A DNA stretch of 64,000 nucleotides, from contig JASANG010003494.1 of assembly GCA_030248215.1 (NCBI GenBank), forward strand, positions 186,001 to 250,000. Direction: 5' to 3'. Below, piece by piece: positions 2,418 through 57,360 of the stretch; position 1 is the first letter of the stretch, and each line of letters begins with the position of its first letter. The notes beneath the pieces are model-generated. The model was not told the origin of the DNA and searched no databases. It saw only the letters and a list, made by a program, of their open reading frames with translations. Both the position numbers and the translations under genes were made by a program. This DNA comes from Enoplolaimus lenunculus (Eukaryota).

Positions 2418-5400
2418 ATCAATGTTAAAGTACCGTTTTCATTTTTAAAACGAACCTCCACCCTTAAAACGTCCTATTTTTTTTATTTTTCGACGCTACA
2501 CAAAAAACGAGCGTAGATGATATTATGTTTATCCTGGTTGACAGAAAAAAGACTTCTTTTCTACATTTACGACTCCCGGACTAAACAAAATTTCAATCAG
2601 CGAACTCTGTTCTGTTGGTGTTCGGCCCCATTAGAAAATTTACTACTATTTGGCACGCCCCGCGTAAGCGTTTTGACATCTGAACACGCCGTGATCCAAA
2701 ATAACGACGTATAAATACACAGGACATTTAGAAGGTAAGGTAGCATCAATAGCAATACATGGAACCATACCCAGCTGCAATTTTTACTGAGTTCAAATCC
2801 ATTAAAAATTCTGATCGCTGTAAGTGTTTATTACTGGCATCGTCAGACAGCTCAACAGGTCGGATCAGGCTTGGTCTGCCGTCATTCTCCTCCTGCTGAT
2901 GAGGACAAAACTTACTGAAATCCGATTGCCAGTTATACGCATACGAAAAGATTTTCAAAAGTAGAATTAGCAAAACCATAATAAAGACCATGCCAAAAAA
3001 ACCAAAATACAAAATCAATATTCTCTCTATGTTAATTCTTGCTCAATTTCAAATCCCAAACCAAACATCTGAATTTTTGGCCATTTTTGAAACGCTACAG
3101 CTGAAATTTAGCTAGCATCTATAGTTGTCACGGCTTGACGAAGATCCAGGGCGCTCACGTGCTACTTATCCGAATTAAATCAAATACTCCGACAGAAAAG
3201 AAATTAACTGCACGCAAAGATGACTTGCAAATACATACGTATTTAAGTATAAGTACAAATGAAGGCCATTCTACTATACACGCCAGATGGCAGATGTTTC
3301 CGGGACCCTAAAATTATACGCATGCACTCTGCATTTTAAATTGTGCATTATACTTATCCAGCGCACTCAAGTACTGACTCGTGCATATGGAAATGCTGCA
3401 AACTACACACGGTATACGTATTATATATGTATATACACTAAACACTACCCATATTATAGTACTCATTAGTAAACGACACACTTCCATTAGCATAAAGTCA
3501 CAATTAACACACGTCGATGGAGCGTACATGCACGTCAAAATGCATGCTTCTATATAACGACACAAATTCTAAACCGATACTGAGGGAAAATTAGAAATTT
3601 AAAGAATTTAAAACTGGAAATCTAACTCGATCAATCTAACTTCCGTCGCTTCTATTTCGATCACTGACAGATGTTTTACACAAACGCTGTGCTATTAATA
3701 AGTCTAATTTTAACAAATATAGGGCAGACATAGGTACATTTCTGTTGTGCTTTACAGGCGCTAGTGTACATGTTAGCCAATTAAAATCATCTGGAGTAAT
3801 ACTTCGGTAGCATTGCAATTATATTCAACGAAGTAATTAAAGTTAACCTTACATTTCTAACTAAGTGTATATGTAAATTCCCACCTCAAATAACTCGTCT
3901 TTATCAAGTCAAAGTATTCAATTGTGCAAATCTTAAATTAATATTGTGCGAGAAGAGTGACGAAGCCTTTGTTGAACAACACTAACTTTACTTTGTTTGT
4001 GGACCCTTACAATCCACAGTATTCATACAAAAAAACTGAACACACCGAGTCTCACTGGGCAAGAAAATCCCCCAAAGTATAACATGTTAGCTGTCACTCA
4101 GGGTCCAAGCGGAATTCCGTTTCAAAACGAGTTCCGATTCCGATATAATCCAGTTCTCCTTTGCAACCTGGTGTCGGGGTAACAAGAGTTGTCACAAAGT
4201 TATTCGAAAACAGTATTAATTGTTAACATGATACCCAAGAAGTCGTCTTCGGTGTTAAATAAGTTACGATCTCAGGTCAGCAAAGCAGTTTTTCAATTGA
4301 TGCACACTGGTCACTGGTCACATAAGCACGAACAACTCTAATCAGTAAAAGATGGCGGTTGGTTTCGGCTAAATTTTCGCAAAAACCTATGTCGTTCGTT
4401 TTATCAATAAAGAAACGTACGTAAGCATTACATTACCTAGTTATAAACGCGAAGACTTAAAACCTAACATCCATAAACGACTACAAAATATTTTGTGAAA
4501 TACAAAGGCAATAGACATGCACATGACATTTTCATGACCAGGAAGAGGCAATGCTAAACGTCAGTAAGTGAAGATGAAAGCATTGCAACTCACTGTATAT
4601 AAATGCTAAAATTATCTGCAAAGAATCGACAATTTTTTGCACTTCCAATAGCGACACTCCCATGGATAATGCCGATTATTACCGGTGCCGCCGATTGACA
4701 CTTCCCTAATTAAAGGTCCGTTTATTGGTTTAAAAAATTCTGGGCCATGAACATGTTTCAATATTAGAACGTACAACTTTACTACAATCACACATCTGGC
4801 TGCTAAACTCGCCGCAAGGATTACACTCCATGCCGTTTAAAAATTCAAAATGATTCGGGATGTGCCAATTAATCGGCATCGGTAATAATTGGCACTTTCC
4901 GCGAATATTGGCATCGGCACTGCAAAAACATTGCAGATTGTTATCTCTCATGCGTCTATATTTGAAAAAATTAATTGAAAAGAACCGTTCTGACAGCCAG
5001 TCTAAGGTGATGTTTCTGTTTCCTGTTGCAACCAGCAATTTTTTTTAAAAAATTGCGGTTTTTTGGGAGGTCAAATTTGGTCTCTCCGGAAAGTCACTTT
5101 TTAAAAAGCAAAAATTCCACACTTTCTTTACAAATACAGCAAAAATTCCGAAGGGTGATCAATGATCATAGATGATCCCCAGAATCGCACGTTTCGAATT
5201 ACAGCACAAGATACGTATATATGTGTTGATTCTATCCCTCAAGTGAATTCCTGATCCGGCCGGAATTCCTGCAAAGCTTCAATTCCTGTTCTGGTTCGTT
5301 ATTCAAAGATGCAGGAAACGGCATTTTTATGGTTTTGTACCAAATTAATTCTAATCATTTAATATTGGAAACTTTGCCTTTTAAAAATTGTTATTTCGAC

Positions 5401-5896: not shown

Positions 5897-6502
5897 AAAT
5901 TCGCTTAAGCCATTTTTTGGCAAGTTTTCTAATACAAATTCCGGTTCCTGAACAGAAATTCAAATTCCTCGTTGCAACCGGAATTTAATAACAAATATCT
6001 AATTTTGGCATGCATTTCTTCCACAATGGATAGTTTGAAATAACTCCTACCAAAAATGTATATTAAAAATGTGTCATGTCAATTAATCGGCATCGGTAAA
6101 TATCGGAACTCTTTGTCAGCTTCAAACGCCATCGCCACTGCAAAAAGTATCGACATCGGCAAAAATTGCGGTATCCGCACATCACAGGTATACATACGTA
6201 ATATTTAGTGCAATGTGACTGAAAATGTGTCCCCCGTATGGCCTTTTCAAAGATTTGTAATATCGATAAGACATCAATAACTGTGTCAAGAAACCCAGTT
6301 AATACTAAGATTCGAGAATAAACAAGATTATAACCTATATACTATGGCAACTAATACTAAATTACGGTACTTAAGTTTAACATTTTGTTGCACTATGCAC
6401 TTAAATATCTGGCTCCGGCAACTGCCAGAGCCGAATATTGAAGATTCGGCTTCGGCATTGTTTGGTATCAGGTTGAACCATGGCAAATACCTATATTCAA
6501 CG

Positions 6503-6864
6503 CAGTGCGGCAACAAAGGTTCGGATTCGGATTCGGCAAAAATTTGAGGTCCGGATTCGGTTGTGGAAAAGCCGAATCCAACAATGTTCGGCAATATGTT
6601 TTTTCATTTTCAAGCAATAAAATTTTTAAATACCTTGCTATAAAAATCAATATTTTTTATTTCAGGTGAGAAATCTCAGAACTATCGTCGGGACGAAATA
6701 TATTACCGTATTAATAGTTATACGGCTGGCATTGCGTTGATATTCTGAAACAAATTATAAATATATCTGAAATTTGCATAATGCAGGATTCGGATTCGGT
6801 TTCGGATTCGGCAAATTAGCACTGGATTCGGATTCGGTCAAATCGTGGATTCGGTGCCACCCTG
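6503..6864. mobile_element. hAT-like MITE with TTCGGA repeats
   Basis: CAG..CTG termini, perfect 8-bp TSD ATTCAACG. Confidence 0.85.
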
Positions 6865-6958
6865 ATTCAACGTATTATAATACGTACATAAGGTTCCGTG
6901 CTAGTATATTAGAATATAAATAGGACAGTTTTTCCCGGTTTAAGATGTCGTTGGTTAG

Positions 6959-7901
6959 TGTAAGCATGTAAGACATGCTTGTCCGTTATGTGGACAATGC
7001 ACATGCAGTATAGTGCAGCGCACTGTATGAATGCTTGCTGGCAGCATACGGTCGACACATATAGTCGTCGAAAAACAGTTGGAGAGGAGGGCTGCGTGGC
7101 CCAGTGGTAGAGTGTTCGCTTAAGGATCCGTAGGCTCTTTTACAGCTGCTGAGTAGAAATGTCTCAAGTCCCGATTCCTACCAAGACTGACATAGGGGCT
7201 ACTCCGTGGACGCAATGGCAAATTGCCGAGCTATGAACACGGTATCCAGTCGAACATAGGGTGGACGGTCAAGGGACGACCTTATTAAAGGTTAGGGCAT
7301 GTAAGCATGTGAGACAATGAAATTCACATTGTGTTGTATGCTTGCTGAAACAGCATACTGACAACACATATAGTCGACGAAAACTGCAGCTGTAGAGGCG
7401 GGCTGCGTGGCGCAGTGGCAGAGTGTTCGCTTACGGATCCGTAGACTGAGAGTTCGAGCCCCACTCCGGAAGCCGCTTTTCCAGCTGCTTGGTAGAAATG
7501 TCTGATGTCCCTCGCCTCCTACCTAGACTGACATGAGAGCTACACCGTCAGCGCAATGGTAAACTGCCGCGCTATGAACACGGTATCCAGTCGAAAATAG
7601 AATGGACGGTAAAGGGACGACCTCGTTGAAAATAAGGGCATGTAAGCATGTGAGACATGCTTGTCCGTTATGTGCACATGCAATATAGTGCAGTGCACTG
7701 TATATATGCTTGCTAACAGCACGCGATCGACACATAGTCGACGAAAAACAGTTGGAAAGGCGGGCTGCGTGGCCCAGTGATAGAGTATTCGCTTAAGGAT
7801 CCGTAGGCTGAGAGTTCAATCCCCGCAGTGGATGTGGATTCCCCTTTTTCAAGCTGCTTAATTAAAAAGGTCGGAAGTCCCGGTTCCAGCCTAGACTAAC
7901 A
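6959..7901 (+). mobile_element. Miniature non-autonomous LTR retroelement (TRIM), LTR-I-LTR-I-LTR array with tRNA-like sequence in the LTRs
   Basis: Three TG..CA repeats (6959-7192, 7300-7533, 7641-7901) and two 107-bp internal segments with a PBS-like start and purine-rich end. Perfect 5-bp TSD GTTAG at 6954-6958 and 7902-7906. Confidence 0.9.
7401..7480 (+). pseudogene. tRNA-like Pol III unit in LTR2 (related copies at 7763-7849, and at 7090 with box B deleted)
   Basis: Box A TGGCGCAGTGG 7408-7418, box B GTTCGAGCC 7452-7460, TTTT 7477-7480. Confidence 0.75.
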
Positions 7902-10900
7902 GTTAGTCTGTAATTTCGTCATTGTGTCACTTACGTATTTTTAAAACATAATTTTCAAATTCAGAATCAGCAATTTTAGTCGAAAAGGTTATGTCATGAA
8001 TACACAACGCACATTGTTTAAAGAATTGTATCTAAATGTATGCTTTGCTCTGTCATACCAATGACATCGCACGAATCCTGAATGCGCTTCTAGCAGGTAA
8101 TTAAAATTTTCATGAAACGACGGACAACATTCCGTCAAACGGTTGGTTTTACAAAAAATGAAAAAGATTCCCGAATTTGGAAAACAACCACACAAACCGA
8201 TCTGTAGCTAAACAAAGAAATTCGCGGAAAAACATTTAACCTAGCTAAGTAAATATCGTTTCTAAAACATTTTGTGAACAATTAAATGCATATCAAAATA
8301 TAACCAGCACAAAACGATCATTACTTACACTTGTACGTTCGAAATAATAAATTTTCCAGCAAGTGCTTAACTTCCCAAGCCAGAGTCTGTCTAGGGAACT
8401 AGTTGAAAAGATCTGATTCATACGAGTTCAAAACAATCATTTTTGAAACTAGCATACTGGGCTTCAATTTTAATGTATGATACACTATATCTCAAAAACA
8501 GTGCAGATTTTATGATTGTTATTAACACTGGAAAAAGTAAAGTGTTTTTGACAGTGTCCAATTGCTCCTTTTTTCGATTTCAGCGAACACTGATATGCAG
8601 GTCTTATCAAGAACGCGGCATTTACCCTATTTCGTTTCGGAACCGAAGTTGGTTGTGCTGGAAACGCTGCAAAAATGAAAATCCGATAGTTTGGGGTTGC
8701 CATCTGTTCAGTAGGATCAAAGGGCAGGCTTAAGGGTAAACGCCGGAAGTTTGCCTCAAGGTCCGACTCTTCCGAAATATCGACCTTCGGCTCTGCGTAC
8801 GGTCGAATTTTTGCAGGTTTCGTAAATTTTAATAATAGATTTTTTGTACTTTCAAAAAAGTAGTATCAGCGAGTAGTGTTGCAGCGTTGGAATAGTTTTG
8901 AGCGGTATACAACAATATGATTTGCAAATTATGGTTGAAATACGCATCATGTCCAACTCTTACACGCTTCGGCAAATTTTAAATACCGTTTTATCTCCTT
9001 ACTGTACCATCATGATAGGCTTGATAGGCTTTAATATTATCAAAACAAAAACGTAAATAATTCAACGGTGTTAATACGTTTTATGCATGATTAGTACACA
9101 ACAGCAGTCATGTTGGTGATTGGTCTGCTAACATTGAATGCAGTCAAGACTGAGTCTCAAAATTCAGCACTTTTTTCGCACATATTTGCTCTACACATGT
9201 GCCAATTTTGAGTTTAACAACTACAATTGTTAGTTAATAGTTTAGAAACCCATTACTAAACTGAAGGTAGTTGCACACTTTGAGAATATGGTGGGCCCTT
9301 ATACATTTTTTACGCTTTCCAAATGTAGCAAAATATTATATTTATATTTGATATTTGTTTTGGCCATCTTGCGTGCTGTAGTTACTCGCATAACAGGGGT
9401 ACTGAGAGGGTCACCATTTTGAGTCAGCCGGTAAGCGGATAGTCCATAAACCGCAAGGAGTCCACAAAAATGTCAATTTTATCCCTTATTATAGTGCATA
9501 AATGACTAGGATCTAATAAAGTTGAGTTCGAAACTTTAAACCATGAGTACTTAAGTTTTGAAAGTACATTCCTAAGTATAACGTAGCATATCGTTCAAAC
9601 TTTATATACTATACAAATAAACGTTCAGTTCAACGGATAGTTAAAATACCGGATATATATCAGTATTAACGAAGTGTGGCAGATGGCAGGTTGGAAATAA
9701 ACAACAGTACGTAACCAAATAACGGGTGGTACTCTCTGAAGCGGTCAAATAATGTCAGTCTTCCCCTCTTATTCGAGTCACTACAGTAAATCAATGAAAT
9801 GATGTTGTCTATGGTTGCAAAAAGCAATGTTTCAAAATCGCACAAAAATTCATGCGGGAAGAAATACTGGAGGAAACTCTTACACATAGCAAACGCAGCG
9901 ACGTTATCAAATCCTGCGATGACAAAAAACTCATAACCCCTCAGAGGTGGTATTTAAATATAATTGCCTGCTAATCGCCGGTTTCCTTCCATCATTACTT
10001 AAAGCCATGTAGGGGCGGAACGCTTTTCTGTGTGACTGCAATAGTGTAAGCTAAACCTTTAGACTAATTTTTTGCTTGGCTTAGGCTTAGGCTTAGGCTT
10101 AGGCTTAGGCTTAGTAATAAACTCATTCTTACGCTTAGGCTAGGCTTACGCTTAGGAATAAACTCATTCTTATGCTTAGGAATAGACTCATTCTTACGCT
10201 TAGGCTTAGGAATAAACTCATTCTTACGCTTAGGCTTTAGGCTTAGACTTATAGGCTTAGGCTTAGGCTTAAGAGTATGCTTATAATACTGTTCCGCCCC
10301 TATTCTTTACGTTGGCCAATACTTCTAAAAGTCTAACAAGCATGCAAGCTAACACTTTATACAAAAAGCTTGAATAATAGGACGTACTTTATTCAACACA
10401 AACATTTGAAACCTCTATTAAATGAGACACAACATTTTTACAGAAACAATTTATTAGCAATAATTAAAAGTAATCATTTTCCGTTTACTTCTCTGATTTT
10501 CCTCTGGTTTTGAGAAACAAAAAATGTCAAATCAGTTGTGATTGACCAATCATCATAGACCGGCCATAGTTATATGCTTTTTCCCCTGTTTCTGATAATT
10601 AGCAACTTCCAATCGTTTTCTAATTTAGTTTTCAATAAAGGCACAGTTTGGTCGAGCTAAAATACTGCAGGTCATAGCGGTTTATTGTTCAAGCCGGTAA
10701 ATTATAAATGGTTTTGCCAAAAATACCATGCCTGATTGCAGAAAAAATATTAATATTAAATAACTGACAGTTTGAATATTAAACATTCGTACATTATTTG
10801 AGAAGTAATTATTTCTACAGGAAACAATATGTAAAATACGCTTTTATCTTTTTAATCATGGGTTAAACAACAATCAGGGTACAGGAAAATATTATAACCT

Positions 10901-27300: not shown

Positions 27301-28607
27301 TATCAGTATTGCACCCTAAAATCAGAGATTTGTTTTATGCTACACTGATAAACGTATGGTTTTTTGTGGACTGGAACGTCACCATGACGTCATTCTAGGA
27401 GCGGATCACCACGTCTCGGTTTTGCACCAGCGACAGTGTAGCGAGCGAGAAAATTTTCTGTCGTCTGCCGATTATACTACGGACTGTAAAAGTTTCGTTT
27501 TCGAGGTTTTCCACAAATTTTAGGTGATATTCTTTTCCTATCCTGATGTGGTTTGCGGATTTGGTTTCGGAACACGTTTAGGCTTTTATATCGGACGTTT
27601 TGTAATATTAGTGTGGGTCAATGTTACTTTAAGGCGTGCAACAGTAAATTATGCGTGTTCCTAAGCCTAATCCTAAACCCAAGCTAAAAATGTAATCTAG
27701 AATCTAAACCTACACTTTTATAGACCAACCAGCGACCTGGACGCTTCTTAAAGTAACATGGGCCATAATTGTGGATGATTTAATGTTAAAAGATGCTTAA
27801 TCAAACGGTGACGGTCAGGTGTGACGTTTGCTGATGATTTAAGATGCTGAAACAGTTTCAGTTCCGTCGTTGAGCAAAGGCAATTTTCTCTGCTGCTTAA
27901 GCTCCAGGGCAGATAATTTTTAAAATTTGTAGTTTAGGCTTATAGTTGTAAGTAAAAATTTCAAGTTGTTCAAGCAGTGCCATATAGAGTTCTTTACGAA
28001 AATTAGATGCGGTGGGGCTAGAGATTTTTAATTCACGAGCGGATCCAGGGGGGGGGGACGGCCGCCCCTTCTTTAGAAAATGTTTTGTCATAATATGGTA
28101 ACGTCGTATCTTACAATTTTTTCCAACATTTTCACATATTTGGCATACAGTAAAAAAATTGCGTTTTATTACTTTTGCCAGCCCGGTTAACTGTCTGAAA
28201 TTTCTGTATTAGCCGCTGCTTTAATTGTATATTTAGTGTTCAGGTTAATTTTGGTTTTCAGGTTTCAAAGTACATGATTTTTAAAATTGGGTTAGGCTTA
28301 AGGTTGTACGATTCAAAATCCTAAATGGTGGTTAAGCTAAGGAAGATTATAATTTGGTTTCAGTTTCGCTGCTGAACCGATGCGATTGGTTTTACTACAG
28401 GAAGAACGGCCCGTAGGCAGCTCACCTTGCTGGAATGGGCTAAAATGTTTTAGTAGCGGCAAACAAGAGTTTTCTTTGACTTAGAGCAAAGTTGAAATTT
28501 TTCTAGTGGGGGCCAAGATTTTCCAAGGGTGGTCGCTGGGCCGCCTACCCACCATGTAGGTTTTTGAAAACATTGCAGATAATTGGCTGTTGGGCTGAAT
28601 TAGTTAT

Positions 28608-34718: not shown

Positions 34719-35347
34719 GCCAAAACGAAGGCAGGTTGTGGTGAATAGCGCAAATGGTTTTGAAAACTTTACTTCGGTGAACGAATATTGTTAGCTGAGC
34801 AATAGTTGAATTCAACGCAGATCTTTTACAGACACACAAATCCTAGCGGTACTCATGGTTTCAAACCACAAGCATAGTTTTTAAGTAAAAATGTGAAAAT
34901 AGCTGAATATACATACTAAACAATATTTAAAGTGCAAAACGATAATGTCTCTACCTTACCATTTTTCCCCTAAGAAAACTTGTTGGTGATAAAATGATAA
35001 GGTCCTTGCTTTACAATTTTTGCATTTCATTACATTTGCCAGCCCGCCCCTCCCGTCATAAAATTTTGAATCTGCCTCTGGTTGATTTTAACGATGCAAA
35101 CCATACTGGGAAATTTTTAAATTGTGATAATCTGTTGCTGTTAGCACTTGTTTTAAGACGTATTAGGCAGCCCATTTTGTGCGATGCGCAAAAACGTTAG
35201 CGAATACCTATAAATCTGTATACAAATTTTCTTATTACAACAATTATTTGTATGTATGTGCTATGAAAACTATTGTAAAGCTGGAAACTTGTCCAAAACA
35301 CGTATGTGACGTATTCCAGCTTTAATTATATAGATGTTTTATTTCAG

Positions 35348-38742: not shown

Positions 38743-41700
38743 TGTAGGTGGCTGTGCCACACTTAAACCTATTTCAAACTAAAAACTAAAACTAAAATAA
38801 AACCCTATATCTAAACCACACCTTAAGGGAGTTCCTGGCTCCACCTAGTCTCTCTTAGAACTTAAGTTAGGCTTAGGCGTTGCTACAAGGCGTAGAAATT
38901 GGTAAATCTATGCTATGGCGGCTGTGTCCGCAATGTAAACTTACCTGGGGCCCTGCGTGGCCATAGAATGGATTGATTAATGGTGCATATCGAGATGGCT
39001 ATAATTGCGTTTAACGACATAGCTAGGCTATGTCAGCACCAAAAATGGTGCTTAATATTGTGTGTCTCCGGCATGGTTGTTGTTGTTGTTGTAGTACCGG
39101 TTGGGTGGCTCTCGACCTCGACCGCATTGCGGACACCCAGTGGTGTGTGTCGGCAAAAATGCAAATGAGGTCGAGATGCCGATATGGGTAGCCAGGACCG
39201 GAATCAGTCTTGGTTGAGTTTTTCTACAAATCGGTTGGCGTTTTATTTGGTTGGCGGCGAGCGTTTATTTTTACATTGCTTCTTGAATTTTGGTTTGCGT
39301 TTGGAAATTTTACTAAGTAAGGTCGAACGGATTTAAGTTTAAGTTTGTCACGGTGGCTTAACATGTGAAGGAAAGCAGGCATCACGGATTTAATTGGTGT
39401 TGCGCAGGGCGCAGAAATTACCCAGTATTGGATACTGGTGTCATGTGCTAAAGGAACTTGGGATATTAAAGGAAACCTGGGGAAAAGTAGTCTAGTAAAT
39501 CTAACGGGGTTAGATCAAAAAAAAAGAAAAAACAAAAAAAAAAAAAAAAAAAAAAACAAAAAAAAAAAACAAAACAAACCCCCCACCAAGACGCAAGGAA
39601 AAGGGCAATGGCCCAGAGGGCGCGCGTTAGTCCGAAGGGATCAACGGGCGGATATGTACGACCGGCTGCGGGGTCGGTGGTAAGTAGAATCGGACCGAGG
39701 CAGGCGAATCCGGTGTACAGTGCATCGGCTGTGCGATCACAGACAGCGCCTGGGTACCGAGGATCCGGAGCAGTAACGCAGAGGGTGGTTATTAGTCCAC
39801 CAGCTGGGTCGGCAAGGGTACGGCCACCAGTCCGGCAAACGTCGGGCGAGCGGTACCCTGTACGAGTTGGCGGTCATATGGGACAGTCGCAAGTGGCGCC
39901 GGCACGTGGTTATTACAATCAGCAAGTGGAGGACGTACGGCAGGCGATGCGAGAAAGTCGTCAAGTGGAACGACAGCAGCAGCAACAACGGGCGTCGCGA
40001 TCAGTGGCGCGCGATAATCAGTGGGTGACGCAGGAAGAATTGGACGCCTATTATGCGGACGTCCCTCGTGAACTGCGTCGAAAACGCTTTTGATGGATCG
40101 GTAATAGACGTTATGGTGATTATTAGTTCGGTAATGCTGCGGGGTGCTGGGGGTTGTACTGGTACGCCGGGTCGTTGGAATGGAATCTTGGGGAGTGACG
40201 TTATTTGGGCTGTTCTGGGGCTGTTAATGTGGTAATGGTTGTCGGGGGTAATGTTGAACGGGTGCTGGGGGTGCGCTGGTACGCGGTTTCGTTATTTGGG
40301 TTTTATTGGACGCATTGGCAACATTGTCGTGGGTCGTTAGTGGTTTGTTATCGTTATTCGGCGGAAAAGACAAAAACTTTAAAAATAAATAAAAAGCAAT
40401 ATAAAAGAAAGAAAATGATGAAAAATTGTTGTTGTTATTGTTGTTAAGTTTGTTATTGTGGATTTACGCTTTTTAGCGACGGCAAAAAAGGCAGTAAATA
40501 GGGCCATAAAATTTTGTTCGATGCCAGGGTCGGCATCTGTGCCGAAGGGGGGATGTAGGTGGCTGTGCCACACTTAAACCTATTTCAAACTAAAAACTAA
40601 AACTAAAATAAAACCCTATATCAAAACCACACCTTAAGGGAGTTCCTGGCTCCACCTAGTCTCTCTTAGAACTTAAGTTAGGCTTAGGCGTTGCTACAAG
40701 GCGTAGAAATTGGTAAATCGATGCTATGGCGGCTGTGTCCGCAATGTAAACTTACCTGGGGCCCTGCGTGGCCATAGAATGGATTGATTAATAGTTTATA
40801 TTGTGCTGGCCTAAATTGCGTTTAACGACATAGCTAGGCTATGTCAGCACCAAAAATGGTGCTTAATATTGTGTGTCTCCGGCATGGTTGTTGTTGTTGT
40901 TGTAGTACCGGTTGGGTGGCTCTCGACCTCGACCGCATTGCGGACACCCAGTTGTGTGTGTCGGCAAAAATGCAAATGAGGTCGAGATGCCGATATGGGT
41001 AGCCAGGACCGGAATCAGTCTTGGTTTAGTTTTTCTACAAATCGGTTGGCGTTTATTGGTTGGCGGTGAGCGTTTATTTTTACATTGCTTCTTGAATTTT
41101 GGCTTGCGTTTGGAAATTTTAATAAGTAAGGTCGAACGGATTTAAATTTAAGATTGTCACGGTGGCTTAACATGTGAAGGAAAGCAGGCATCACGGATTT
41201 AATCGGCGTTGCGCAGGGCGCAGAAATTACCCAGTATTGGATACTGGTGTCATGTGCTAAAGGAACTTGGGATATTAAAGGAAACCTGGGGAAAAGTAGT
41301 CTAGTAAATCTAACGGGGTTAGATTTATTATTCTACAACGGCTGGGCCAAATCTAACGGGGTTAGATTGGTCGGAAATTTGGTGTAACTCTAACGGGGTT
41401 AGAGTACACGGTTTAACGGGGTGTAATTCTAACGGGGTTAGAATTGCACGGATTCTGGAAAACGGCAAAAGTATTTGGTACGGTAAAGCCAGTGGCTGGA
41501 TTAAATCAGATTCAGACGTCGGCTTTAAGGATTCCGGCTCGGGTTACCAGTTAAATTACATAACCTGTGATTTGCTGGCCTTTAATTTGGGTATTTCGTG
41601 TCTTACGGTTCGGGTACCAGTAAATTACATAACCTGTGATTTGCTGGCCTTAATTTCGGTTGTTTTGTGTCCCACAGGTCGCGGGTACCAGTTAAATTAC

Positions 41701-51001: not shown

Positions 51002-52542
51002 GTAAGTAACATCGACCAAACAGACACGCAGCCAAAGAGTGACCGTTTGAATTTTCAGCTAATTCTAGAAAATGTTTGTCTTCCGTTCTAAGAATGCAGA
51101 GGTGGAGTGGCGACCTGGCTTGCAAGTCAAGTGCCCAATGTACCCCGGTTGAAATTTGAACAGACCAAGAAAAAATTTTGATTATTTAACTATTTCTCTA
51201 AATTGTCCAGCCGATTTGTAGCGCCTCTCAGGTCCTGCAAGAAAACGCTCTGCTTATGACCTTCCTGGGACTAATTTGGCACTCGCTGAATTTAGTATTT
51301 AGCTGAATTTGCATTCGTTGAAAACGATAGCGGTTTATCATTGAGAAAGGATTATTTACATTTAAAATTAATATCCTATCATGCGATTTCACGTGTTAAA
51401 ATGATTTATTAGTTGGCGTGGTTTCAAGTATGCTCAAGAGTTTGAAAGCTGACCACGAATAGCAAATAATTGTAAGGAGGCTTAAGGGGATTTGAGGGGA
51501 TGTATATTCTGCTACTTAACAGCGTCGCTGGGAGCATAGAGAGGATGGCCAGTGTTACTTCTAGGGCTGTAACACGAGATTAAGCGTATTCCTAAGCCAA
51601 AGCCTACGACTAAGGGTTGCAAAAGCGTATTCCTAAGTCTAAGCCTAAGCTTAGGCCTACGCCTAAGTCAAAGCAAATATGTGGTCTGAAATATAAGCCT
51701 ACTCTTTTGCAGACGCACCAGAAACCAGGCCGACCCTAAAAGTAACATGGGCCGTAAGGGCCAATTATTTAAATTTTACAGTTTTTTGCGTGTTTTGAGG
51801 CAAGAACATTTAATCAAGATACAAATAATTTGAAAGGATACTCAGAACGCATCTTGTCAAAGTATTAGTTGCTTTAAAATACCGTTAAGTTTCTGTAAGA
51901 ACCGTATTAATCTTCATATGCACTCAAAATGTTATCTAAATGCGGATAAAAAAGTATTGGTAGCATCAAATTGAAAACTAATCACTGAAATTAAGACAAT
52001 TTAGGATAACTGAAAAATACTCATAGGAAAGAAAACCTACGAACTGAAATTTAAAACATTTTTTCCAAAATAAAAGAAAAAATACTCATTTTGAAAGGAA
52101 ACTACGTACTGAAATTAAAAAAATGTTTTAGCAGCGATTAGTGTATGTACGTACGTGTATGTATGTATGTCTATACAAGAAATAATATTTGACGGGTAAT
52201 AATTGAATAAACTTTGACCAAATTACGTTCCGCCGGAAGAAGAATTTTGGTGTTAATCTATTATTATTCCGGTTTAAACACTACACATGTTCTCAATGTC
52301 ACTGTTAATCCACTATGAATTAATAGATTTAAAATGATGCAGTCAGTCGTTTAATTACAAAGGGTCACAAATCAACGCATGGTTGAACCGAAACAATTAA
52401 AATTGAATGACAAAATGAGGCAAATCTTTTTGGCCCATGTATAAAACACGGCCGGATCGTTTTCCGGAGGGGCTATAATTGAGGCAGTTTAAACTTTAGG
52501 CTGATTTTGTGTTTGGCTTAGGCTTAGGAATATGATCATTGT

Positions 52543-52776
52543 TGTCAGTCTAGGTAGGATCCGGGACATCAGACCTTTCAACTAAGCAGCTGGAAAAGCG
52601 GGCTACAGCGAATCGAACTCTTTGCCTATGGATCCTAAGCGAATACTCTACCACTGCGTCACGTAGCCCGCCTGTCCAACTGCATTTTTCATTGACTATA
52701 TGTGTCGACCGTACAACACAATGTGCATTGCATTTATTGCATATGCACCAGCACAAGCATATCTCACATGCTTACA
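52543..52776 (-). mobile_element. Solo LTR of the same tRNA-bearing TRIM
   Basis: Reverse-complement match to the 7-kb LTRs from end to end, TG..CA termini, perfect TSD ATTGT at 52538-52542 and 52777-52781. It interrupts a TTAGGC MITE. Confidence 0.9.
52600..52668 (-). pseudogene. tRNA-Pro(AGG)-like Pol III unit within solo LTR
   Basis: GGCTACG/TGTAGCC acceptor stem, C discriminator, box A TGACGCAGTGG, box B GTTCGATTC, TT-AGG loop, TTTT terminator 2 nt downstream. The anticodon stem does not pair, so it is not a functional tRNA. Confidence 0.75.
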
Positions 52777-53196
52777 ATTGTTACGCTTGCGTTTAGGCTT
52801 AGGCTCAGGAATATGGTTATGCTACTGTTCCGGCCCTGTTCTATACATGGGCCATCTTTGTTTTCAAAATTTTACTCAAAGTTGATCTCAGTAGTTTTCT
52901 ACTTTACGACCAAAATTTTTAATCAGTGTAAACGGAGTTACTCTTCTGATACTACAGTTTGTTATATTATTTATCCAGTGAATTATTTTAACGCTCGGGT
53001 CTAAAAGTAAACAATTTCAAATTGCAATTGTAGGAGGCCGCCAAATAAGATTTTCTGCGGACACCCCTGACTGTTATTTCGTTCATAATTAACTTGTGCA
53101 ATAAAACATACATTTGCAAACTTTCGCAATTTCTAATAAAATATTGCTGCAAGAATTCTTATATGGAGCAGAGTCAAAGTGACCCATTGTTATTTC

Positions 53197-56812: not shown

Positions 56813-57360
56813 GTATGTTTGTGATTGGTTGATTTAATTTCTCGCATTTTGTAATTGGTCAATGATACTTTGAAAAGCTCAAGCGCCGCAACTACAGGGG
56901 TTGTCGCGCCGATTACGGACGGCTTCACCCCTGTCAGAAAAAATTTTATACAAACATTTCCTCATTACGGAGCTGAGAAGTTTCCATTGAGCATATGCTT
57001 GTTGTTTAGAATAAATCTAAGATTAAGTCTAAGCCTAAGCCTACTGTGGAACTGACAGCAGAAATACGGGATACACATGAAAATAAAAATAGACCTGGTG
57101 TCGTTTTTTGCTAAATATATTCGAATTTACGGCCAATGTATAGAACAGGTTAGTTACAGTAGTATCATGCATATTCCTAAGCCTAAGCGTAAGAATGACC
57201 TTTACCTAAGCCTAAGCCTAACCGCCAGCTTAAGCATGAAATAGTCTAAAGCTTAAACTTACTTTATTGCAGTCCCGCAAAAAACGTTCCGCTCCTGTTC
57301 TTTACATGAGCCGAGTTCATGAAGAATGTTTCAAATTTGAGACATTTGTTATTCTTTTAG

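Follow-up and report, generated by a model that had tools for sequence, protein, structure and literature searches.

The array at positions 6954-7906 of the window (the whole 64,000-nucleotide stretch of DNA that was analysed) is read here as a member of a TRIM family whose LTRs carry a tRNA-like unit. In the preferred interpretation, which we rate at roughly 60%, the element would be transcribed by Pol III and copied by a Cer1-like Gypsy element from a proline-type primer, and the LTR unit would itself derive from that primer. Taken singly, Pol III transcription of the element is likely on sequence grounds, mobilisation by an autonomous helper LTR retrotransposon of the Cer1-like Gypsy kind is probable, and so is descent of the LTR unit from a proline-type primer tRNA. 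Arrays of this kind and tRNA-bearing LTRs are already published. New here is a putative tRNA-Pro-type primer-binding site (PBS) that abuts the LTR and mirrors the acceptor end of the tRNA-like unit in a solo LTR of the family.

The array consists of three TG..CA LTRs interleaved with two internal segments of 107 bp, all within a single outer 5-bp TSD, GTTAG, and the coordinates bear out the first-pass annotation in each of these respects. On the forward strand, the left TSD (6954-6958) is followed by LTR1 (6959-7192, 234 bp), internal segment 1 (7193-7299), LTR2 (7300-7533, 234 bp, shorter in its upstream portion), internal segment 2 (7534-7640), LTR3 (7641-7901, 261 bp) and the right TSD (7902-7906). 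An LTR-internal-LTR unit is short (234+107+234 bp, or 575 bp) and non-coding. The LTRs are 79-87% identical to one another, and the internal segments are alike at 87 of 107 positions (81%). Each internal segment opens with a PBS that adjoins the preceding LTR without a gap (7193-7208, where a tRNA-Pro-type frame can be made out, and 7534-7549), and both copies are decayed; the 64-kb window holds no third PBS-bearing copy. The terminal 16 nt of each internal segment form a weak purine tract, with 11/16 and 12/16 purines upstream of the two 3' LTRs compared with 0.60-0.62 across the whole internal segment. The start of the LTR agrees with TGTNR, a pattern of Gypsy termini as given in PMC2836005.

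A search for solo LTRs, which had been proposed earlier, found one on the reverse strand at 52543-52776 (234 bp, TG..CA) with a 5-bp TSD of its own, ACAAT on the element strand. TSDs of 5 bp flank both insertions in the window (2/2), and the TSD statistics concern these two only. For the array, the flanks fit a length of 5 bp and neither 4 nor 6 bp. A 5-bp match would arise by chance with a probability of ~1.3e-3 at one insertion and ~1.6e-6 at both.

Other copies were examined in contigs from three public DNA runs of one study. No contig among them spans the whole array, and one agrees with its right junction with 0 differences. Contigs leaving the LTR start (7641) enter heterogeneous sequence in 166, 180 and 105 cases (agreement 0.35-0.37), as do 55, 50 and 33 contigs leaving the LTR end (7533). 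Summed depth is ~1e4-1e5 on conserved parts versus 14-38 on unique flank (runs X1 and X2), figures that do not represent copy number. The family is high-copy; the ends of its LTRs are fixed, and the flanks of its copies are unrelated. The first-pass annotation had argued against a SINE and had set the ends of other copies as the test; since those ends are constant and the flanks unrelated, the family is not a SINE.

The tRNA-like unit begins 132, 102 and 123 nt inside LTR1, LTR2 and LTR3, respectively. In LTR1 it runs from 7090, with box A at 7097-7107 and a T-run at 7138-7141; box B and the 3' half of the unit are deleted. The LTR2 unit starts at 7401 (box A 7408-7418, box B 7452-7460, T-run 7477-7480) and that of LTR3 at 7763 (box A 7770-7780, box B 7814-7822, T-run 7845-7849). 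With the solo LTR included, whose unit (52668-52600, reverse strand) is the best preserved of the four, box A occurs in 4/4 copies and box B in 3/4; a run of 4-5 T follows the unit in 3/3 array LTRs. The unit described earlier, with box A, box B (lost from LTR1) and T-run, is confirmed in its parts; by standard tools its likeness to tRNA is weak. ARAGORN at default settings reports 0 tRNA genes, Rfam gives no tRNA match at E<=1 in 6500-8400, and at the gathering score Rfam matches nothing anywhere in the window. The solo unit does align to the full tRNA model of Rfam, scoring 14.6 bits where the cut-off is 29 (E 2.8 when 4227 families are searched; by division, ~7e-4 for the tRNA model alone). 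Relaxed ARAGORN types this unit as tRNA-Leu. In isotype the unit is ambiguous, the four copies having AAG, ACG, AAG and AGG at the anticodon position. ARAGORN predictions at 80-85% thresholds were numerous and mutually incompatible and were disregarded; Rfam matches to snoZ223 (E 0.26) and UPD-PK2 were put down to chance.

The unit is surrounded by a predicted 15-bp stem whose downstream arm includes the T-run. On the forward strand, its arms lie at 7075-7089 and 7135-7149 in LTR1, at 7386-7400 and 7474-7488 in LTR2 (unit plus arms, 7386-7488), and at 7748-7762 and 7843-7857 in LTR3. The arms, which lie outside the tRNA body, pair in 4/4 LTRs with shuffle p values of 0.0078, 0.0006, 0.048 and 0.0004, for arms chosen by eye in four copies that are related to one another. 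Folding of the solo unit gives z -5.1 with the arm and z -1.1 if the sequence is cut within the T-run. In LTR2 and LTR3, folding of the whole unit does not reach significance (z -0.8 and z -1.4, respectively).

The PBS can be read more clearly from the contigs than from the decayed local copies. In run X1, G replaces the local A in 94% of the depth at 7194, 98% at 7536, 97% at 7538 and 94% at 7544. Because most contigs carry G at those sites, the PBS of the family begins TGG, the complement of the tRNA CCA, and its frame is TGGGGGC-N4-CCG. That frame, together with direct contact with the LTR, is shared with the tRNA-Pro PBS of Cer1 as described in PMC3315495 and PMC10309623, and the complement of Aplysia tRNA-Pro also has it (PMC10886601, Fig. 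S2). Judged by this frame against the published tRNA-Pro ends, the PBS is likely to be complementary to a proline-type tRNA; its middle four nucleotides are unlike both of those ends. PBS nucleotides 4-11 also equal the complement of the acceptor end of the solo unit at 7/8 positions in both internal segments, where the best score elsewhere in the internals is 5/8 and the background 3.5e-4. Against the LTR2 and LTR3 units of the array itself, the PBS forms only 7-9 pairs of 16. Nucleotides 12-14 follow the host-type tRNA-Pro frame and not the T-stem of the LTR unit, which points to a primer from outside the element. The simplest explanation of the mirrored acceptor end would be that the primer tRNA was captured long ago and that the unit descends from it.

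In the mechanism we propose, Pol III would recognise boxes A and B and start ~15 nt 5' of the tRNA-like unit. The run of four T would act as a leaky terminator that is read through in the 5' LTR and ends transcription in a later LTR, giving a genomic RNA with the tRNA-like unit as its terminal repeat. The enclosing stem could form only once transcription has passed the T-run. A helper would package this RNA, a primer of tRNA-Pro type would pair with the PBS, the second strand would be primed from the weak purine tract, and the helper integrase would leave the 5-bp TSD. Solo LTRs would result from LTR-LTR recombination, and the three-LTR array from template switching or from recombination of unlike copies.

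The primer could instead come from the element. Short Pol III transcripts of the same TRIM that stop at the T-run might be trimmed, receive CCA and anneal to its own PBS, an idea that we regard as unlikely. It would account for the 7/8 match to the acceptor end of the solo unit, which with CCA added forms 11/16 pairs even though the local PBS copies are decayed. In many contigs, the 3' half of the unit has the canonical tRNA length, and loose ends just before 7473 finish in TAGC in all three runs (60, 47 and 47 contigs; agreement 0.52-0.53). By hand count, copies of the TAGC type pair with the common PBS at least about as well as the two published tRNA-Pro ends do. The terminator also lies 2 nt past the discriminator, the arrangement of genuine tRNA genes. 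The LTR cassette might then be promoter and primer gene in one, where a stop at the leaky T-run yields primer and read-through into the stem yields genomic RNA; this extension is equally doubtful. Every cycle copies the PBS anew from the primer, so a self-primed PBS should mirror the T-stem of the unit as well, and it fails to do so. Within the LTR, the 3' half of the unit varies most (17-22 matches per 26-30 aligned nt; 559 distinct joints in the contigs), and another common form, 3 nt longer at 7826 (58, 45 and 32 contigs), pairs less well with the PBS. The cloverleaf is poor, and pairing of leader with trailer may impede trimming. In the published account of Helenus, moreover, Kojima saw no such complementarity (PMC10886601).

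Another candidate is a Bel/Pao helper that mobilises the same TRIM and encodes the tRNA-like RNA that primes it, the LTR unit being a relic of that RNA; we hold this to be improbable. Caenorhabditis elegans Cer7 reportedly encodes its own tRNA primer, but the literature searched contained no text in support of this. Bel/Pao elements produce TSDs of 5 bp. The 5-bp TSDs seen here, set against the 4 bp listed for Gypsy-dependent animal Helenus in PMC10886601, speak for such a helper, as do the four middle PBS nucleotides; the PBS frame and zero spacing are those of the Cer1 family (PMC3315495, PMC10309623) and speak against it. An animal Gypsy element with a 5-bp TSD exists (PMC12801901). The literature search found no printed TSD length for nematode Gypsy or Bel/Pao elements. 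Since both groups can give 5 bp, this length cannot tell one from the other.

An ordinary Pol II-driven TRIM might carry the tRNA-like unit as a passenger that stems from an old insertion of a SINE or tRNA and has no promoter role; we consider this very unlikely. Scores under the tRNA thresholds speak for it, as does the loss of box B from LTR1, whose joined form (7136 to 7473) recurs in 3, 2 and 1 other contigs. Yet the 61-nt head, box A included, is better conserved than any other ungapped part of the LTR (84-93%), three of four copies retain box B, and among the best-supported joints, those ranking ahead of 425 further ones, there is no class of contigs without the entire unit. A tRNA-derived SINE or local tandem repeat with accidental TG..CA ends, suggested by the tRNA-like head, box A/B and T-run, can practically be dismissed, a possible minor class among further loose ends aside. 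In hundreds of contigs the ends are fixed, 90-130 nt upstream and ~55 nt downstream of the unit; both TSDs are exact at 5 bp; a solo LTR and a PBS are present; and there is none of the tRNA-head 5' end, simple-repeat tail or variable TSD of tRNA SINEs.

The host is a probable nematode, judged only from TTAGGC telomere-type arrays. Proteins did not narrow this down: Pfam searches of window reading frames (7; 144 of 184; 32 of 37) gave calcium-binding EGF exons and weak EMI and cuticlin matches, and homologue and atlas searches led to animals from many phyla. No helper element was found. In viral contigs the tRNA-head motif had 0 matches and the LTR-end/PBS motif 4, none similar over >26 nt. Among metagenome contigs, a 20-nt motif from the internal segment matched once, in bacterial-gene-like DNA with no further similarity, and this match was put down to chance. 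The solo LTR, the tRNA-Pro-type PBS, its match to the unit and the enclosing stem had not figured in the first-pass annotation.

With this element, the range of tRNA-bearing TRIMs grows by what is probably a seventh animal phylum. The acceptor end shared by the PBS and the LTR unit offers capture of a packaged primer tRNA as an alternative to an origin by SINE insertion. With many copies in one genome, two questions become testable: by what means a Pol III TRIM gets beyond the terminator that its 5' LTR contains, and whether it can supply its own primer. The element would also raise tRNA gene counts in the host genome.

Among known systems, the element fits by its structure the definition of Helenus (TRIMp3), the TRIMs with a tRNA-derived LTR described by Kojima in 2024; the group is a structural one and is considered to have several origins (PMC10886601). 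The first-pass annotation was right that tRNA-bearing equivalents have been named Helenus, and its suggestion that such an element might be undescribed in nematodes agrees with the Helenus tables of that paper, which list no nematode. Shared features in the published account are an LTR tRNA-like unit with boxes A and B, an LTR-adjacent PBS, a short non-coding unit, solo LTRs with TSDs, high copy number, and lengths of LTR and internal segment that fall in the published range; tandem arrays are published for zebrafish LTR-11_DR, and a tRNA-Pro PBS for one bivalve family (PMC10886601). The TSDs here, 5 bp at 2/2 insertions, lie within the fixed 4-6 bp of Helenus. However, the animal Helenus with a TSD length in Table S1 all have 4 bp, a difference which implies that the present element arose independently and with another helper. 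The 7/8 match between PBS and solo unit contrasts with the lack of LTR-tRNA/PBS complementarity noted by Kojima, and an enclosing stem is not described in that account (PMC10886601).

Cassandra, as the first-pass annotation had also stated, carries 5S rRNA in its LTRs and forms like arrays (PMC4079214, PMC4717578). The two share a small-RNA unit of Pol III type within their LTRs, TSDs of 5 bp and three-LTR/two-internal arrays within one TSD; in pear, according to these papers, such arrays make up 182 of 1,175 intact TSD-flanked copies. Cassandra differs in being a plant element with 5S rRNA, of which Rfam finds no match in the LTRs or the window. Ajax is an animal TRIMp3 that likewise has 5-bp TSDs, but its promoter is 5S-derived, its hosts are nemerteans and its PBS is of the tRNA-Leu type (PMC10886601). 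The PBS of the Cer1 family, Gypsy elements of Caenorhabditis, agrees with the present one at nucleotides 1-7 and 12-14 and differs at 8-11 (PMC3315495, PMC10309623). Cer1 is autonomous and protein-coding, and represents the candidate kind of helper, with no relatedness to the TRIM implied.

The array at 6954-7906 consists of three LTRs on the forward strand, each bounded by TG..CA (LTR1, 6959-7192, 234 bp; LTR2, 7300-7533, 234 bp; LTR3, 7641-7901, 261 bp), interleaved with two 107-bp internal segments that are identical at 87/107 positions. The LTRs are 79-87% alike in pairs, and GTTAG stands on both sides of the entire array as a 5-bp target-site duplication (TSD). A tRNA-like unit begins 102-132 nt inside each LTR. 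All three units have box A and a run of 4-5 T; box B is confined to LTR2 and LTR3. This architecture, including the single TSD and the lack of box B in LTR1, had been described in the first-pass annotation and is borne out by the window sequence. None of the array units is called as a tRNA by standard tools (ARAGORN at default settings, Rfam).

Self-comparison of the window found a solo LTR of the same family on the reverse strand (52543-52776). It is 82-85% like the array LTRs and has its own exact 5-bp duplication; the chance of both duplications together is about 1.6e-6. The best tRNA-like unit is that of the solo LTR: aligned over the full length of the Rfam tRNA model, it has an acceptor stem of 7 bp and scores 14.6 bits, below the cut-off of 29. 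The solo LTR sits within a dispersed repeat bearing TTAGGC units (52429-52800), a kind of repeat present many times in the window.

The array is a mosaic. LTR1 is nearest LTR3 upstream (96/107) and in the tRNA head (57/61), and the two have a rare box A letter in common; beyond the T-run, LTR1 is nearer LTR2 (47/55) than LTR3 (43/55). This pattern is consistent with unlike copies having recombined or with template switching between them, both of which are discussed as routes for Cassandra arrays (PMC4079214). Other family copies were surveyed in contigs from three public DNA runs containing this stretch (one study, at most two samples). The LTR1-type joint without box B, 7136/7473, is found in 3, 2 and 1 contigs of these runs, so copying of this form, or its repeated origin at a short repeat, is possible.

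The primer-binding site (PBS) opening each internal segment directly adjoins the LTR, with zero spacer. Both array copies are decayed. Contigs mostly have G at 7194, 7536, 7538 and 7544 (94-98% of the depth in run X1), so the PBS opens with TGG. It has the frame TGGGGGC-N4-CCG in common with the Cer1 PBS, a complement of C. elegans tRNA-Pro that lies immediately next to the LTR (PMC3315495, PMC10309623), and with the Aplysia tRNA-Pro end (Kojima 2024, Fig. S2, PMC10886601). The middle four letters are unlike both published tRNA-Pro sequences and instead match the tRNA-like unit of the element itself, in its acceptor stem. In the window copies, PBS nt 4-11 of both internal segments agree at 7/8 positions with the complemented final 8 nt of the solo unit, against 5/8 at the next-best offset (background 3.5e-4). 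This match would favor self-priming, where a short Pol III transcript of the LTR unit serves as primer at the PBS. Self-priming is nonetheless unlikely: the PBS pairs with the array's own LTR2 and LTR3 at only 7-9/16, no part of the LTR varies more than the 3' half of the tRNA-like unit, and PBS nt 12-14 track the host tRNA-Pro frame rather than the unit's T-stem. Since each cycle writes a PBS anew from its primer, we favor a primer that would come from outside, with the LTR unit probably an old captured copy of it. For comparison, Cer7 of C. elegans may encode its own tRNA primer.

In the proposed mechanism, Pol III would initiate just upstream of the tRNA-like unit, the 4-T run of the 5' LTR would be partly read through, and termination would occur in a later LTR. 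The RNA would then be packaged by a helper, an autonomous element supplying enzymes, and primed with a tRNA-Pro-type RNA; the helper would integrate the copy, leaving a 5-bp duplication. Duplications of 5 bp are also made by Bel/Pao elements. The PBS frame and a Gypsy-type terminus, judged by the published Gypsy end pattern (PMC2836005), point to a putative Cer1-like helper; 5-bp duplications are known for at least one animal Gypsy (PMC12801901). No candidate helper was found in the window or in motif searches of metagenome and viral contigs. A second, unrelated-looking LTR-type element occupies 38743-41337. Its 773-bp direct repeats (38743-39515 and 40554-41324) are 97% alike and start with TG; the first ends at an A-rich run, and the second, preceded by a clean purine tract, apparently ends with CA at 41337. 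Neither a PBS nor a TSD was seen for it, and its 1-kb interior has no Pfam match.

The tRNA-like unit may also be enclosed by a stem. In 4/4 LTRs the 15 nt upstream of the unit pair with 15 nt downstream, the downstream arm taking in the T-run plus 8 nt past it (shuffle p = 0.0078, 0.0006, 0.048 and 0.0004). The solo LTR folds with z -5.1 when this arm is included and -1.1 if cut within the T-run; array values are -2.1 (LTR1), -0.8 (LTR2) and -1.4 (LTR3). The stem is only suggestive because the arms were chosen by eye and the copies are related. If real, it belongs to RNA transcribed past the terminator, as a Pol III TRIM needs for its genomic RNA.

The contigs show that the family is very abundant. 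Those placed on 6800-8060 number 8957, 6519 and 3721 pieces in the three runs, a neighboring repeat ending at 6864 included, and those on 7395-7580 number 1335, 991 and 666. Summed depth, which is not copy number, is of order 1e4-1e5 over conserved parts versus 14-38 over unique flank (X1 and a second run, X2). The LTR start is joined by 166, 180 and 105 contigs whose flanks are unrelated (agreement 0.35-0.37). The LTR end is left by 55, 50 and 33 contigs for unrelated sequence, and by another 100, 94 and 62 that first pass through the same terminal motif. These fixed ends, with no boundary at the tRNA head and no simple-repeat tail among the loose ends listed, which rank above 2088 and 340 weaker rows, rule out SINE and satellite readings, and the earlier claim that the element is not a SINE holds. 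No contig placed on 6800-8060 spans the whole array. The neighboring repeat (about 6500-6864), also very high-copy, stops 90 bp short of the array on its left side, and 217, 221 and 122 contigs depart at 6864 into unrelated sequence.

The host is probably a nematode. TTAGGC, the nematode telomere unit, or its complement forms 25 tandem runs across the window, and TTAGGG and TTAGG form none; protein searches indicate an animal without discriminating the phylum. Pfam matches on the forward strand, namely calcium-binding EGF exons at 57240, 59296, 60798, 61898 and 62751 and a weak EMI match at 35334, suggest a single gene over 35334-63080, presumably MEGF6-like, in which case the solo LTR would be intronic. 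A tRNA-Asp call at 4568-4662 (reverse strand; ARAGORN, relaxed threshold) and a weak cuticlin match at 27320-27520 (forward strand; E 0.0097) may be due to chance.

Helenus, named in the first-pass annotation, is indeed defined as TRIMs with tRNA-derived sequence in the LTR (Kojima 2024, PMC10886601). The present element conforms to that definition; the purine tract ahead of the downstream LTR is no more than a weak candidate (11-12/16 purines in the two internal segments). Three-LTR arrays are common among plant TRIMs (PMC4717578, PMC4079214) and are also reported for one zebrafish Helenus (PMC10886601). Nematode TRIMs are mentioned in PMC4717578 as unpublished, with no detail there. No nematode Helenus was found in searches of the open literature, later papers included (Repbase, Dfam and subscription journals lay outside this search), and the string 'nematod' does not occur in the Kojima text and supplement as available (PMC10886601). 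In that source, all animal Helenus with a stated value have a 4-bp TSD, in contrast to 5 bp here, and no complementarity was found between LTR tRNA and PBS, whereas here the PBS matches the solo unit. The element is a real, abundant Helenus-type TRIM, and it is new relative to published Helenus in its probable host, its TSD length and its primer-site match.
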